A DNA stretch of 64,000 nt from assembly GCA_963846555.1 (NCBI GenBank), contig CAWJWI010000006.1, positions 12,184 through 76,183 on the forward strand, given 5' to 3'. The position numbers and the translations under genes are program-made. Below the pieces are notes generated by a model. It was not told the DNA's origin and did not search any database. It worked only from the letters and a program-made list of their open reading frames with translations. Below, one piece after another: positions 58,444 through 63,541 of the stretch. The DNA comes from an uncultured Microthrixaceae bacterium. GTDB lineage: Bacteria; Actinomycetota; Acidimicrobiia; Acidimicrobiales; VFJN01. Numbering within the stretch: the first letter of the stretch is position 1; every line of letters begins with the position of its first letter.

Positions 58444-58590
58444 GCTCGGCAGCAGGGGGGGGTGGAAGGTAGGTGACCCTGCTTTCCTGACGTGTCGTGG
58501 AGCTCGTCCGCTGACGGAGGCTCACTGCCCGCAGGCCCCGCGTAGTGGGACACCTTGTCGTCACTTCGGCAGTTGCGCCAGCGCCAGCTG

Positions 58591-58857
58591 CTACTTGCCG
58601 GTGCGCTCACGATGCTTGCAGCCCGGCCAGCAGCACGGTCGCCGCTGGCCTTCCTCCAACTCCTCCTTGGTCCGACGGAGTCGCCGCGCTCGAGTCTTCT
58701 CCTGCTTGGCATCCTCGACCCAGCAGATGAACTCGTTGCGGGCCAGAGGAGTGATGTCCTTCCAGGCATCGAGCGCCGTGGGGTTGCCAATCAGCGTTTC
58801 GCGAAGGTCCCTCGGAAGCTTGTGCACCACCCCGCCGGGTACTTGCTGGCTGCTCAT
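58591..58857 (-). CDS. YdeI/OmpD-associated family protein
   Basis: TPLARNEFICWVEDAKQEKTRARR..RRPCCWPGC. Confidence 0.88.
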   Translation of the reverse strand: MSSQQVPGGVVHKLPRDLRETLIGNPTALDAWKDITPLARNEFICWVEDAKQEKTRARRLRRTKEELEEGQRRPCCWPGCKHRERTGK

Positions 58858-58996
58858 CGGACCACAGTAGTGGTCGTGCGAGCCCATCCCTCGGGTGCTG
58901 ACTCACGAGCGCGAAGCCCTCGAGCCGGCGTTGTGGGACAGTGCGGTCACACCTCGTAGAAGCCTTCGCCTCGGGCAGCGGGCCGGCTGACGTGAG

Positions 58997-59362
58997 TCAG
59001 TCAGATCCGATGACGCAGAACTCGTTGCCTGCTGGATCCAGGAGCACGCGAGTGGTCCACTCGCCTGCCTCGGTCCGTGACACCGATGAGGCTCCCGCGA
59101 CCAGCATCTCGTCGACGAGGGGGCGCGCATGATCGACGAAGAGATCGAGATGAAGCCGAGTCTTTCCCTCCTTCGGTTCGGGGACGGTCTGAAAGGTCAC
59201 GAACGGAGGTCCGTCCGCGCCGTCGTCGCGTCGCTCGATCGTCTCGTAAGTGCTTCCGGGTGCCCCGGGACGTCGCGTGTATCCGAGGAAGCGCTCCCAG
59301 AACGCGGCCAGCTGCGCCGCGTCAGCGCAGTCCATGGTGACTCCAACCTGTCGTGGCGTCAT
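58997..59362 (-). CDS. VOC family protein
   Basis: DCADAAQLAAFW, KTRLHLDL, LDPAGNEFCV. Confidence 0.88.
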   Translation of the reverse strand: MTPRQVGVTMDCADAAQLAAFWERFLGYTRRPGAPGSTYETIERRDDGADGPPFVTFQTVPEPKEGKTRLHLDLFVDHARPLVDEMLVAGASSVSRTEAGEWTTRVLLDPAGNEFCVIGSD

Positions 59363-59536
59363 GCATCTCCTGAATGGTCTCGTCCTCGGTGCGCCGCACG
59401 TGACGCTAGAGAAGCGCCTCGACACGGTTTGCAGGATTTTGACGGACCCTGATCGACGGGGTCGTGACGGGGAGGGAGCTCCACCCCGGACACCCGCGAG
59501 CGCGCGTCCTGCTGTCGTTCTGACGGGAGCCGCGGT

Positions 59537-60313
59537 TCAGCCGGTCTGGATGTCGTCGCCCTCCTGGACTTCGACGAAGCTGTCGGCGGCGCGATGGTCC
59601 TCAGGAATTGCGTCGAGGAGCCCTTGGCACGATCCGTAGTCGTCCTCCCCCTCGAACCAGACGTTGACGCGGTCGGGGTCACCCTCCCGGATGAGCACTG
59701 CCATCAGCTCGCCGACGCCCGAAGGATTGTCGCGCGACGGTGTGGTCACCTCGCCGCCGAGGATCACGAGACCGTCGGTGTCGGTGTCTGCGCACTCGAA
59801 CGCGACCACGATCTCGTTGAACCGAGCTTCGCCGGTTACCTCGCCATCCTCTTCCTCGGCGGTGATGTCCATACTGTTCTCGGCGAGGCCTTGGCTCCCG
59901 ACGAACTCCACGTCGCCCTTCGCGAGTGTCGTCGGGCCGTCGTCGCTGCACGCGCCGAGCAGCATGATGGCGGTCGCTGCGCTGGCGACGGGGGCGGTGA
60001 ACTTCTTGCTCATCTGTCCTCCTGAAGTGATGGTTCGGCGTTGGCTGGTGGTCGGGCACTCGGTGGTCTGCGGCTGATTGACGGTGTCGACCGGCTCCGG
60101 GTCGTTTGCGAGGCTGGCGGCCAGCAGGACGACTGCGAGCAGGCAGGCCGCGATCGCGAGGAGGCGGATGGTGGGCGGGCGCGAGCGGCGAGGCATGCGC
60201 TGCAGGGCAGCCTCCGTGTTCGCGCGCTCGTTGACCTCTGTGGCGAAGGCGCGCAGGCGGCCGCGGATCTCGTCGTCGGTCTCGGGGGGGAGGGTGTCGT
60301 CGTGATCGCTCAT
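59537..60313 (-). CDS. Putative anti-sigma membrane protein with in-frame internal lipoprotein start at 60013
   Basis: ATGA coupling to the sigma gene; TM helix; internal AGGAGGA-cag-ATG then MSKKF..MLLGAC lipobox. Confidence 0.7.
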   Translation of the reverse strand: MSDHDDTLPPETDDEIRGRLRAFATEVNERANTEAALQRMPRRSRPPTIRLLAIAACLLAVVLLAASLANDPEPVDTVNQPQTTECPTTSQRRTITSGGQMSKKFTAPVASAATAIMLLGACSDDGPTTLAKGDVEFVGSQGLAENSMDITAEEEDGEVTGEARFNEIVVAFECADTDTDGLVILGGEVTTPSRDNPSGVGELMAVLIREGDPDRVNVWFEGEDDYGSCQGLLDAIPEDHRAADSFVEVQEGDDIQTG

Positions 60314-60840
60314 CGTGCGGCTCCGAGGTGCTGGGCGAGCGCTTGGCGGCCTCGATGTAGGTGGACGCGTGCGGTGGACTCGGAGCAGCCGAGGAGGTCG
60401 GCGATCTCCGGGGTCGAACGGTCCTCCAGGTAGTGCAGGGCGACCGCGCCTCGCTGGTGGGGAGACAGGGCACGGAGCGCATCGAGGAGGTCCGGGTCGA
60501 GTCCCTGAGGTTGCTCGGCGGGTTCGCGCCGCTCCCCCCATGCGAGGCGCGTCCTCGCTTCCCGGGCCACGCGGCGTCGACTGTTGATGGAGAGGTTGAT
60601 GGTGACGCGCCTCACCCATGTCCCTGGCTTGTCGAAGGCGCCGATCCGGTCCCAGTGCTGGCGGGCACGGACCATGGCTTCCTGGGCCAGATCCTCGGCC
60701 GTGTGGGGGGAACCCGAGACGGCAGCCGCTAGGGCCACCATCGCCCGGTACTCCCTGCGAAAGAAGTCCTCGAACGCCGCGGAGCGCAGCTCCACCAGGG
60801 TCGCCTCGTCAGGGGCGGACGGCTCCTCGAGCACCGACAT
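60310..60840 (-). CDS. ECF (SigE-family) sigma factor
   Basis: AEDLAQEAM, WVRRVTIN, LHYLEDRSTPEIADLLGCSESTARVHLHRGR. Confidence 0.92.
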   Translation of the reverse strand: MSVLEEPSAPDEATLVELRSAAFEDFFRREYRAMVALAAAVSGSPHTAEDLAQEAMVRARQHWDRIGAFDKPGTWVRRVTINLSINSRRRVAREARTRLAWGERREPAEQPQGLDPDLLDALRALSPHQRGAVALHYLEDRSTPEIADLLGCSESTARVHLHRGRQALAQHLGAAR

Positions 60841-61120
60841 ACCTCCCACACCCCGGCCGACCCGCAAACGTTTACACACCGATGGTCGCCGCCTCGGTGG
60901 TGCCGGTGGTGCCGCGGCGGACCCGTCGCAGCCTGAGGCTGGCCGGAACGGAACCCATTGCCTCGCCGGGCCGCGCAGTCACCCGCAAGCCGGCTTGGCG
61001 GCACCGATCGCTCCGCTCTGCCGCCGGCGCGCCCTCGCCTGCCACCCGCGTCCCATAGGTTCCGTTCAGCTCCACGAGCCTCCACGAGCCGGCGCCATGG
61101 GACGCGGCTACGTTCGCCGT

Positions 61121-61540
61121 ATGGGTGCATGGGGCGAAGGTCCATTCGACAACGACGATGCCGGCGACTGGGCCTACGGCTTTGATGGCGTCGACGAAGC
61201 GACGGGCCTCCGGCTTCTCGCTGACGCGCTCGAACTCGGCGATGCCGACACGTACATCGAGGCGCCGGAAGGAACGACTGCCGTAGCGGCAGCGGCCGTC
61301 GTCTCGTGGCTCAATGACCCTGCAGCTATTCCGGACTCGCCGTACGGCGAGGATGCTGCCGTGTGGGTTCGGACTGCGAGGCCGACCCCCAACGTCCCGC
61401 TCAATGATGCTGCCCTCGCTGCCCTCGATCGTGTGCGGTCCAACCAATCGGAACTTGCCGAGCTTTGGGCCGAGAGCGACGACGTGGCGTGGAGCCGCTC
61501 CCTCATCGAGATCGAGAGCCGTCTGCGAGCTCACGGCTGA
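61121..61540 (+). CDS. DUF4259 family protein
   Basis: MGAWGEGPFDNDDAGDW..SELAELW. Confidence 0.88.
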   Translation: MGAWGEGPFDNDDAGDWAYGFDGVDEATGLRLLADALELGDADTYIEAPEGTTAVAAAAVVSWLNDPAAIPDSPYGEDAAVWVRTARPTPNVPLNDAALAALDRVRSNQSELAELWAESDDVAWSRSLIEIESRLRAHG

Positions 61541-61571
61541 GTAGCTGACCCAGCGTTATGGGATGGTCCTT

Positions 61572-61961
61572 TCAGCGTCGCCTGTGGCCGAGACGACGGT
61601 GAGCAATTGGAACTGCGACACCGAGCACCGCCTCAGTGACAAGCAGCCCTTGGTGGAACCGGCTGGGACGGCCGGCCGACTGCCACGAAAGGATCCGGCC
61701 AGCAGCTCCGCCGAGCAGAGCTCCGGATGTGACTCGGATGACCTCAGTCGATCGTTCCGGCCTTGCAGCGGCGTTCCACAGGAGTGCGCCGGCAGCGACG
61801 TACCACGCGGCGTAGAAGCGGAATTCGCTGTCCACGTTTGGCGCGACTGTGCCGGCGCCAGGCACGCCACGTGTACCGCGCACTAGTGCGTCAGCACCGG
61901 CGACGGTCGCCACCAGCGACATGGCTCGAAGTAGCAACTGAAATCGATCCTGCCTCACCAC
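61572..61961 (-). CDS. DUF4345-like membrane protein
   Basis: VDSEFRFYAAWY, GGAAGRILSW. Confidence 0.75.
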   Translation of the reverse strand: MVRQDRFQLLLRAMSLVATVAGADALVRGTRGVPGAGTVAPNVDSEFRFYAAWYVAAGALLWNAAARPERSTEVIRVTSGALLGGAAGRILSWQSAGRPSRFHQGLLVTEAVLGVAVPIAHRRLGHRRR

Positions 61962-62098
61962 GCCAGCGTTGCCGACGAGGAGCCGTAGCTGGCGGATGAA
62001 GGGACCCGGAGCCGGCGTTATAGGACGCCCCTGACTGATACCGATCCGGGGGCGTCACCGGAGCGGGGGCGGCAATCCAGATCGGGCATGATGCGCGC

Positions 62099-62686
62099 AT
62101 GGGGCTGACCATGGGACGGCGAGCGGCTGGGCTGGTTGCTGCTCTGGCTCTCGCTGTAGTGGCTTGGACGGGCGTCGTGTTGACGTGGCGTTACCGCCCA
62201 GACGGTGGCGTCCCGCTATCCGAGCTGTCGGCGCCACTTCAGTGGTCTCGTCGATTGGTGGATTGGCATGAGGTGTCGCTCTCCCTGGCGGCAGTGGCCT
62301 TGCTGATCTGGTGCGGGCTGTCGATTGCGGACCGGACGTGGCCTTCGCAACGGCCTGGAGTCGTGGTCGGCTCGACGCTCGCGACGATTGCGTTGGTCGC
62401 TTCGACCGCGGTGGCGTGGAATCGAGTGCGCTGGCAGCAACTGGCGCTCTGGGCGGTCGTGGTCGGCGACAACATCAGTGGCCTCTGGTACGCAGCCTTC
62501 TCCGACCAGGTCCGATTCGTGTTCGTCGACGGGTCCGGCGAGGTGCCCCCGTCGGACCTCGCGCCTTGGGTCGTGCTGCATCTCGCGGCGCCATTCGTCG
62601 CTCTGGCGACGCTTGCCCTGGGATGGCTGGCCGGTCGGCCCTCACGCGGTTCGGCGGTGATCGCCGCGACCGATCAGCGGCCTTGA
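62099..62686 (+). CDS. Membrane protein resembling a cytochrome b N-terminal domain
   Basis: YRP..DWHE, WQQLALWAVVVG, WVVLHL; four TMs. Confidence 0.65.
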   Translation: MGLTMGRRAAGLVAALALAVVAWTGVVLTWRYRPDGGVPLSELSAPLQWSRRLVDWHEVSLSLAAVALLIWCGLSIADRTWPSQRPGVVVGSTLATIALVASTAVAWNRVRWQQLALWAVVVGDNISGLWYAAFSDQVRFVFVDGSGEVPPSDLAPWVVLHLAAPFVALATLALGWLAGRPSRGSAVIAATDQRP

Positions 62687-63299
62687 TGATGCTTCAAGCG
62701 GCGACCCGAGCCGGCGTTAGGGGACACGGCTCGCCCGATGCGCTCGAGGCCGACTCGTTGCTGAGCGCGCCGGCAGCGGTTGGCGGATGTACCGCATGTT
62801 GGTCGACCGCTGCCGCGAAGTCGCCAGCCCGACAGAGGCAGCCGCCGGCAGATCGACGGGCATCGCCTCGTCAATCAGAGCGACGGCAGGCAGCGAGCCG
62901 ATCGACGCACGCGCAGCGTCAGTTCGCGTCATGGGCCCACGGGCGCATGCAGGCGGCGACGCGGGCTAGCGATCCTCGAAGCTGGCAGGCCCGAGCCTCG
63001 AGGCCACGTTGGGGGCGCTGGACGCCGACGAGTTACCAACCGATGCGCAGGCGGCTGCGGAGAGGCGTCCAGCCACGATCTTCCTGTACGAGGCAGCGGA
63101 GGCCCGTCCGCCTCGTCGGCTGGCCGAGGACGCCCGCAGATCCGGCGTCAGTGGCGCTGCCTCCAAGCCCATGGTCCCGTGTGCGCGGAGCACCGCCGGT
63201 ATACCGGGTCGTGCGTGCGCGCGGAATCTGATCGTCCCGCCACCGAGGCGGCCAGCTCCCTCGCTACGGCACCCACTCTGCTCACCGAACCTCCGCTGC

Positions 63300-63541
63300 G
63301 GTGCTACGTCATGGCCACGTGCGAAGCTGCACCCGCACCCGGCTCTGCACAGCGGACGGAACCCACCCCGATTCGGGCGCCCATCGCCACGAGCGGACCC
63401 ACGAGCGGACCCACGAGTGGACCCACGACCGGCCTCGCGCTGCCAGCCACCGGAACCGACATCGCGATCGCGCCGGCGCTAGCCGCATTGCTGCTCGTGG
63501 TCGTGGCGCTGTTTAGGCATTTGCTCAAACGCGCTGTGTGA
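63300..63541 (+). pseudogene. C-terminal remnant of an LPxTG-type surface protein
   Basis: Pro/Thr linker, LPATG, hydrophobic helix, RHLLKR tail; no credible N-terminal part. Confidence 0.5.
63387..63434 (+). repeat. 12-bp tandem repeat, about 4 copies (CCACGAGCGGAC; encodes PTSG)
   Basis: Units at 63387, 63399, 63411, 63423. Confidence 0.85.

Follow-up and report, generated by a model that had tools for sequence, protein, structure and literature searches.

How did a row of small genes, separated by copies of a 28-bp sequence, come to be stacked in a soil actinobacterium, and which enzyme could move them? The question is raised by positions 58526 to 62727 of a stretch of 64,000 nucleotides (the window) from an uncultured Microthrixaceae bacterium, contig CAWJWI010000006.1 of assembly GCA_963846555.1. 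The genome comprises 3.75 Mb in 6 contigs and is 81% complete. A first-pass annotation, made from the letters of the window alone, had postulated an integron-like system for cassette stacking, and this idea is supported by the array itself, by homology breakpoints at the core of the sites and by the symmetry of their arms. As far as sequence comparison can tell, the window and other genomes of the class Acidimicrobiia probably contain integron-like cassette arrays in which a dedicated tyrosine recombinase of about 300 amino acids moves the cassettes as double-stranded circles by way of a 6-bp core. The sites detected in the window are:

58526..58553, plus strand: degenerate outermost cassette site, core CCCGCG, 6.0 bits
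58914..58941, plus strand: cassette site, core CCGGCG, 28.0 bits
61048..61075, minus strand: reversed site, core CGGAAC, recognised from its sequence, back to back (2 bp) with the site at 61078
61078..61105, plus strand: cassette site, core CCGGCG, 12.8 bits
61539..61566, plus strand: cassette site, core CCAGCG, 14.8 bits
62001..62028, plus strand: cassette site, core CCGGCG, 24.8 bits
62072..62099, plus strand: sister-system site (core CGGGCA) immediately ahead of the last gene, 24.5 bits under a matrix from other genomes
62700..62727, plus strand: cassette site, core CCGGCG, the last detected, 25.3 bits

Six of these had been predicted and are found where they were placed, all on the plus strand with spacings of 388, 2164, 461, 462 and 699 bp; the CGGAAC and CGGGCA sites are additional. 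The scoring matrix for the own sites was built from 216 sites of other genomes, leaving the own genome out. Across the genome, 4.2 kb contain on average 0.065 matches at a threshold of 10 bits and 0.31 at one of 5 bits, so five of the six sites (12.8-28.0 bits) are far beyond chance, while the degenerate site at 58526 is not significant by itself. The CGGGCA matrix finds 2 matches of at least 17 bits in the whole own genome.

The site is an imperfect dyad consisting of two 11-bp arms around a 6-bp core, CCGGCG; the left arm repeats the right arm in inverted and degenerate form. The 11-6-11 register proposed earlier is the one at which the arms are most symmetric. Dyad matches peak at a 6-bp spacer with 5.1 of 11 positions, compared to 3.2 +/- 0.2 in shuffled sites and 1.9-3.6 at other spacers, and for the 11 sites of the own genome the arm dyad is 4.55 against 2.89. 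All six core positions are conserved in 42-44 of the 44 sites of G046, the complete chromosome behind locus L040. Extra direct copies of an arm are seen 10-30 bp beyond many sites (L096, L102, L152 and L075, and the CGGGCA sites of L236 and L249), and these are possibly accessory binding sites.

An 18-mer pattern derived from the motif matches 61 of 401 genomes of the class, compared to 7 for a reversed control. In the phylum outside the class there are single matches in 25 of 368 genomes (15 in the control) and no clusters, and the system was thus not found there with this motif. The G046 chromosome has 44 matrix matches in 80 kb, 42 of them within 33 kb, and the intervals mostly hold one small gene: TfoX_N, DUF1990, an RHH/Fic pair, bPH_6, DUF6188 and many unknowns. 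Among 20 further regions around pattern matches, which were partly chosen because they showed clusters, 12 have at least three sites, and these come from 10 genomes. A general contig scan gave 31 loci, mostly single sites, of which only L040 had an array within the flank; the single-site loci in unrelated phyla are probably chance matches. Seven viral contigs had one match each and no arrays. When six near-duplicate loci are left out there are 150 intervals with a median of 815 bp, and these contain one open reading frame (85 intervals), two (36), none (14) or three or more (15). The single-frame intervals have their genes in either orientation (43:42), with stops at a median of 30 bp and starts at a median of 87 bp from the site. 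Inverted site pairs are found mainly around the recombinase gene, plus a minority of composites. The tallies include five unpublished genomes (G234, G280, G407, G440 and G598), and loci from two of these are part of the clade B counts given below; none of the conclusions depends on these genomes.

Two further observations concern the surroundings of the arrays. G046 contains two IS110 copies which are 99.4% identical (L057, C1:1110927-1111958, and L058, 1137971-1139002); one stops 7 bp short of a site, and the other comes after the last site, which suggests that the insertion sequence targets these sites. Relaxase-like genes (TrwC-type, by eye) adjoin the arrays of L069 and L085 and are a possible route of cell-to-cell transfer.

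The candidate enzyme is represented by P0001, a tyrosine recombinase of 303 amino acids from genome G048, with 4617 relatives at 1e-50 among 8000 scored. It is a simple tyrosine recombinase without an arm-binding domain, and it carries the catalytic set R-K-H-x-x-R-H-Y (R158, K184/K187, H246, R249, H272 and Y281), residues which are also present in its relatives. Its identity to host XerC and XerD is 32-34%, and the nearest named proteins are simple integrases of Arthrobacter and Gordonia phages (46-47% over 94% of P0001). The structure model was poor (predicted local distance difference test, pLDDT, 59; predicted template modelling score, pTM, 0.39) and matched tyrosine recombinases in general. 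A search of plasmids with P0001 at 1e-40 gave no match, and no serine resolvase was found in the own genome (G000) or in G190. What we call clade A comprises the proteins of at least 66% identity, and the counts include the own genome's copy (L092). In a tree of every fourth intact clade A protein (n=17) and 21 proteins of the sister clade B it forms one branch with a support of 100/100. The residues R-K-H-R-H-Y are conserved in the clade A alignment, except that two rows have a Thr or Cys close to the Lys.

Clade A genes and CCGGCG sites are found in a fixed arrangement. Upstream of 86 clade A genes the sites face away from the gene in 60 cases and inward in 3. A site is present within 250 bp at 44 of 70 clade A loci compared to 0 of 24 clade B loci. 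An arm-only scan upstream of the 70 clade A loci, with an arm matrix that included some of the scanned sites and with the core unscored, returned the core CCGGCG in 24 of 31 good matches, located in nearly all cases 37-46 or 69-73 bp before the start codon. Past the stop codon there is often a second outward site, the core of which is most commonly CGGCAC (7 of 19 good matches) and in 5 cases CCGGCG. With an outward site upstream and frequently another one past the stop, arrays can run outward from the gene in one direction or in both. At L069 (genome G159) the pivot of a two-sided array is 0.8 kb long and contains, in place of a recombinase, one small gene together with two arm-only sites.

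Some clade B genes have outward sites and arrays of their own. The core CGGGCA is found at 5 of 24 loci, and L249 has such outward sites on both sides, four and six in number. The core CGGCAC, with near-symmetric arms, is found at 2 of 24 loci, L241 with ten sites and L239 with five. Judged by eye from the flanks of L182, L199 and L200, another sister clade seems to have outward sites with a XerD-like arm and a further core. CGGGCA-type sites are present inside or beside CCGGCG arrays at L141, L075, L076 and L068, as they are in the window, and the systems thus interleave.

Among 3339 alignment ends 168 are at a site in both partners, mostly those of the recombinase module, and in all six true cargo cases listed homology starts at site positions 9-12, which is the start of the core. 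Twenty pairs (36 loci) have similar recombinase modules and different first cassettes. Here the left arms are 0.72 identical (random 0.42) and the right arms 0.58 (random 0.64), and at the base immediately following the core identity falls to 0.30, so that the left arm travels with the preceding DNA and the right arm with the following DNA. At L136 one cassette is present on both sides of the recombinase with 98% identity, and the copies switch exactly at the core. At L241 a 305-bp cassette occurs three times, from site to site, with 99% identity.

The array in the window matches, in the array direction, the layout of L066: sites, genes, a reversed second-type site, the recombinase and a site. 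The CGGAAC site at 61048 appears equivalent, from its sequence, to the type often found just past the recombinase stop codon with the core CGGCAC. At 61076-61077, where L066 would have the recombinase, it is absent; the window array is an orphan. The first-pass annotation had seen no recombinase in the window, and none of the four PF00589 matches of the own genome falls there. About 15 of 233 CCGGCG sites (G046 array, L070) are preceded, 17-19 bp upstream, by a reversed site of the CGGCAC type, the inner arms of the two overlapping, and such pairs look like a recombinase module with nothing inside. The pair in the window (61048-61105) is 24 bp apart, compared to 17-19 bp in G046 and L070.

The own genome has a second cluster of five sites at C4:2194525-2197163, two of which point left and three right, with a tyrosine recombinase gene between them. 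This array (L001, C4:2192383-2198392) is located in a 5.9-kb island between a tRNA-Cys gene and a 44-bp repeat of the tRNA end. The island also carries a small two-gene pair that looks, by eye, like an antitoxin with a PIN-like toxin; close to the tRNA gene there are two arm-only sites that face each other.

The model which we propose from these data is as follows. The recombinase would bind both arms, as Cre or XerA do, and would act on duplex DNA, exchanging strands where the 6-bp core meets the arms, a step which would follow the known layout of 11-6-11 sites (PMC5357621). Two direct sites would recombine to release a circle containing the right arm, the gene, the left arm and the core, and the circle could re-enter at any site with an identical core. 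As a result of such re-entry arrays would grow outward from the recombinase gene, and different cores would keep sister systems apart. The orphan array of the window, like an attC cluster that has no integron-integrase (CALIN), would be served in trans, here by the C4 copy if its frameshifts are assembly errors.

The genes which the model takes as cargo in the window are:

58591..58887, minus strand: OmdA/YdeI family protein, cassette gene (PF13376, E 1.7e-17), stop 37 bp from the left site and start 26 bp from the right site
58997..59362, minus strand: VOC/glyoxalase-like protein, cassette gene (PF18029, E 2.9e-27), start uncertain, open frame to 59425
59537..60313, minus strand: membrane-anchored protein coupled to the sigma gene, without Pfam match, overlapping the sigma stop
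60310..60840, minus strand: extracytoplasmic function (ECF) sigma factor, Sigma70_r2 and r4_2
61121..61540, plus strand: DUF4259 protein, cassette gene (PF14078, E 3e-27), stop codon overlapping the next site
61572..61961, minus strand: DUF4345 protein, cassette gene (PF14248, E 3.8e-21), stop 5 bp from a site
62099..62686, plus strand: membrane protein with a weak cytochrome b-like match (PF00033, 21.2 bits, cut-off 27.2), stop 13 bp from a site

Most of the earlier gene names stand, the OmdA/YdeI (PF13376), Glyoxalase_6, ECF sigma, DUF4259 and DUF4345 matches being above the Pfam cut-offs. The cytochrome b name of the last gene is sub-threshold, and the anti-sigma role of the 59537..60313 product, which has no Pfam match, is suggested by its position alone. 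The seven cassette genes have, as had been noticed, more codons ending in A or T: their GC content at third codon positions is 0.65-0.86, whereas 42 other window genes have a median of 0.89. At 63387-63541, shortly beyond the last site, an open frame contains a 12-bp tandem repeat (PTSG) followed by an LPATG motif and a hydrophobic tail, and it resembles the remnant of a sortase-anchored protein.

A number of observations weigh against the proposed model. No site passes the thresholds used at 25 of the 70 clade A loci and at 17 of the 24 clade B loci, and clade A is missing from 9 of the 14 genomes that have arrays or several sites, the single-contig chromosomes G190 and G159 among them. Had a recombinase gene been captured as cargo just once, it would likewise keep a fixed orientation and distance to its site. 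The alignment of the own C4 copy to P0001 (70-97% identity) falls into five pieces and runs through four frame changes. On contig C6 beyond the window (equivalent to 68437-71482), genes named by eye as Lon-like and acyl-CoA dehydrogenase-like are also split in pieces, which hints at indel errors in the assembly and bears on the status of this copy. The module pairs and the metagenome loci are non-independent. Recombinase flanks supplied the seed sequences of the CGGGCA and CGGCAC matrices, so matches in these flanks are circular and only further array sites count, and the CGGCAC-type arms closely resemble the dif arm, with CG at positions 8-9 in 7 of 16. The G046 homologue of the VOC gene of the window (82% identity, at the array edge) has the opposite polarity to the sites. 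In contigs of four related runs, which covered 0.08-0.17 of the stretch and come from one study, neither a joint at a site nor a circle was found. A comparison for empty sites showed that 11 of 29 genus relatives have the cytochrome P450 gene, and that 0 of 11 P450 stretches keep the gene order of the window on both sides; no empty site was seen.

The work could instead be done by host XerC, with or without XerD, as in the Acinetobacter dif modules or in integrative mobile elements exploiting Xer (IMEX) such as TLC phage, and the clade A gene would then be cargo or a mere activator. The earlier suggestion of host XerC/XerD has become the weaker candidate, and we consider it unlikely, even though XerC/XerD-like genes and dif are present in every genome checked. 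The own genome has both genes and one canonical dif, found by pattern at C4:1922439. The right arm and the XerC-side arm of the host dif (5.1 of 11 matches) have the inner seven bases, TTATGGG, in common, the cores agree with the own dif core at 4-5 of 6 positions, most array genomes are without clade A, and in the attP of TLC the XerC side is good and the XerD side divergent (PMC5357621). Against this stands that arm positions 8-9 differ from dif in 224 of 224 sites, CG being present in 6 of 6 dif sites, which were found without constraining these positions, and in none of the cassette sites. The left arm matches the own XerD arm at 3.0 of 11 positions compared to 4.8 of 11 for the inverted right arm, which agrees with the earlier remark that the second arm does not resemble a XerD site. 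Different recombinase clades go with different cores and arm types, dif cores of other genomes differ from CCGGCG, and the arrays are distant from dif, by 0.27 Mb on the own C4 and by 1.06 Mb in G046 (dif near 36.9 kb, array at 1.10-1.14 Mb). No cassette sites are found beside the own dif; the GC skew of the own assembly was too noisy for placing the terminus. A different possibility is that the sites are one-way scars left by repeated insertions of small non-autonomous elements, stacked once and not reshuffled. The lack of excision in the contigs of the four runs, the degenerate left arms, the orphan array and the location of the C4 array in an island ending in the 44-bp tRNA-Cys repeat would fit this. 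It is nevertheless very unlikely, as an invariant core is a requirement of reversible exchange and near-identical cassettes with site-exact ends recur at separate positions of one array.

That the motif is a regulator box, a promoter, a terminator or a transposon end, and the genes merely collected in a hotspot, is highly improbable. The sites are indeed intergenic and partly palindromic, but their orientation is constant whatever the direction of the genes, homology breaks at the core, and the sites are tied to recombinase genes. Scans of the sites for promoters and terminators gave no matches. There is next to no chance that the array is a divergent true integron or CALIN with the repeats as R' ends of attC sites, a reading that is now largely refuted. 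It had in its favour the integron-like cassette sizes and cargo, the inverted upstream partners of about 15 of 233 sites mentioned above, and the GCGTT of the sites, which we take to resemble the attC crossover. However, an upstream complement of the own first arm at 10 of 11 positions is found in 0 of 150 intervals (the mean of 6.9 equals that of controls) and junctions in circle form fold like shuffles (z -0.08, n=120), so that the resemblance to attC pointed out in the first-pass annotation is not supported. An Rfam scan gave no match. The genes face either way, and P0001 scores 41.6 bits against a TIGR02249 cut-off of 265 and is without an insertion relative to XerC/XerD. A further idea, that each site forms one half of a hairpin of the attC or CTX attP kind, was rejected as well: the partner test is passed by only 10 of 233 sites, where 2.6 would be expected, and folding is neutral.

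We lean, with caution, towards a wider statement: the Acidimicrobiia would possess a family of independently evolved integron analogues, in which phage-derived simple recombinases with outward 28-bp sites capture and shuffle single genes as duplex circles. The core (CCGGCG, CGGGCA or CGGCAC) would be the address that keeps the systems orthogonal, and nested sites, of which the window has an example, would let a gene pass between systems. Since the site is short and the enzyme small, the question can be tested directly on plasmids, including whether a single enzyme is sufficient and where cassettes originate. Recombinase clades with different cores are also candidates for orthogonal Cre-like tools. 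A description of such a system was not found in the open text of PubMed Central and bioRxiv; subscription journals are mostly outside this search, and the supplementary subgroup tables of PMC8138268 could list the clade.

How does the proposed system compare with known ones? In Cre/lox a single recombinase acts on an imperfect dyad. The same is true of XerS/difSL, XerH/difH and XerA, where the gene is beside its site (PMC5357621). These single-recombinase Xer systems resolve dimers at one site, whereas here dozens of sites bound cargo. The Arthrobacter and Gordonia phage integrases and the simple integrases of the Brujita type are also without an arm-binding domain (PMC8138268), but phage integrases act at one attP/attB pair and clade A sites form arrays. 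The IMEX (TLC, VGJ and CTX phages) are similar in the XerC-like side that is kept, the divergent XerD side (TLC) and the tandem stacking, and differ in that they integrate at the chromosomal dif; the present arrays are far from dif and contain single genes (PMC5357621). The Acinetobacter dif modules (pdif) have 28-bp 11-6-11 sites between accessory modules, recombination between sites whose 6-bp spacers are identical, and, as here, an arm like the XerC side of dif (PMC13141974). They are defined by alternating orientation and a XerD arm, while we see mostly direct repeats, no XerD arm and a linked recombinase clade (PMC13141974, PMC9771954). The alternation is absent from our arrays: 44 of 44 sites are on one strand in G046, and six are direct in the window.

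Integron cassettes have their open reading frames co-oriented with their sites. Here the genes lie in either orientation, arrays are found on both sides of the recombinase gene, and the recombinase is not IntI. The folded attC also contrasts with the short duplex-type 11-6-11 site and its invariant core. Integrons and CALINs are nevertheless alike in having a recombinase gene with a divergent site just upstream (here 60:3 outward, at 37-46 or 69-73 bp), a feature of the related loci and not of the window. They are also alike in their tandem one-gene cassettes of unknown or adaptive function, and in orphan arrays that include genomes without the enzyme (PMC4889954). Half of the CALINs are in genomes without IntI (PMC4889954). 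The arrays in genomes without clade A are a parallel to this, yet they would also fit with host XerC as the enzyme at work. The survey found no complete integron in Actinobacteria, a gap that it left unexplained (PMC4889954). A convergent cassette system built from other parts, which attC-based tools would miss, would fill part of that gap.

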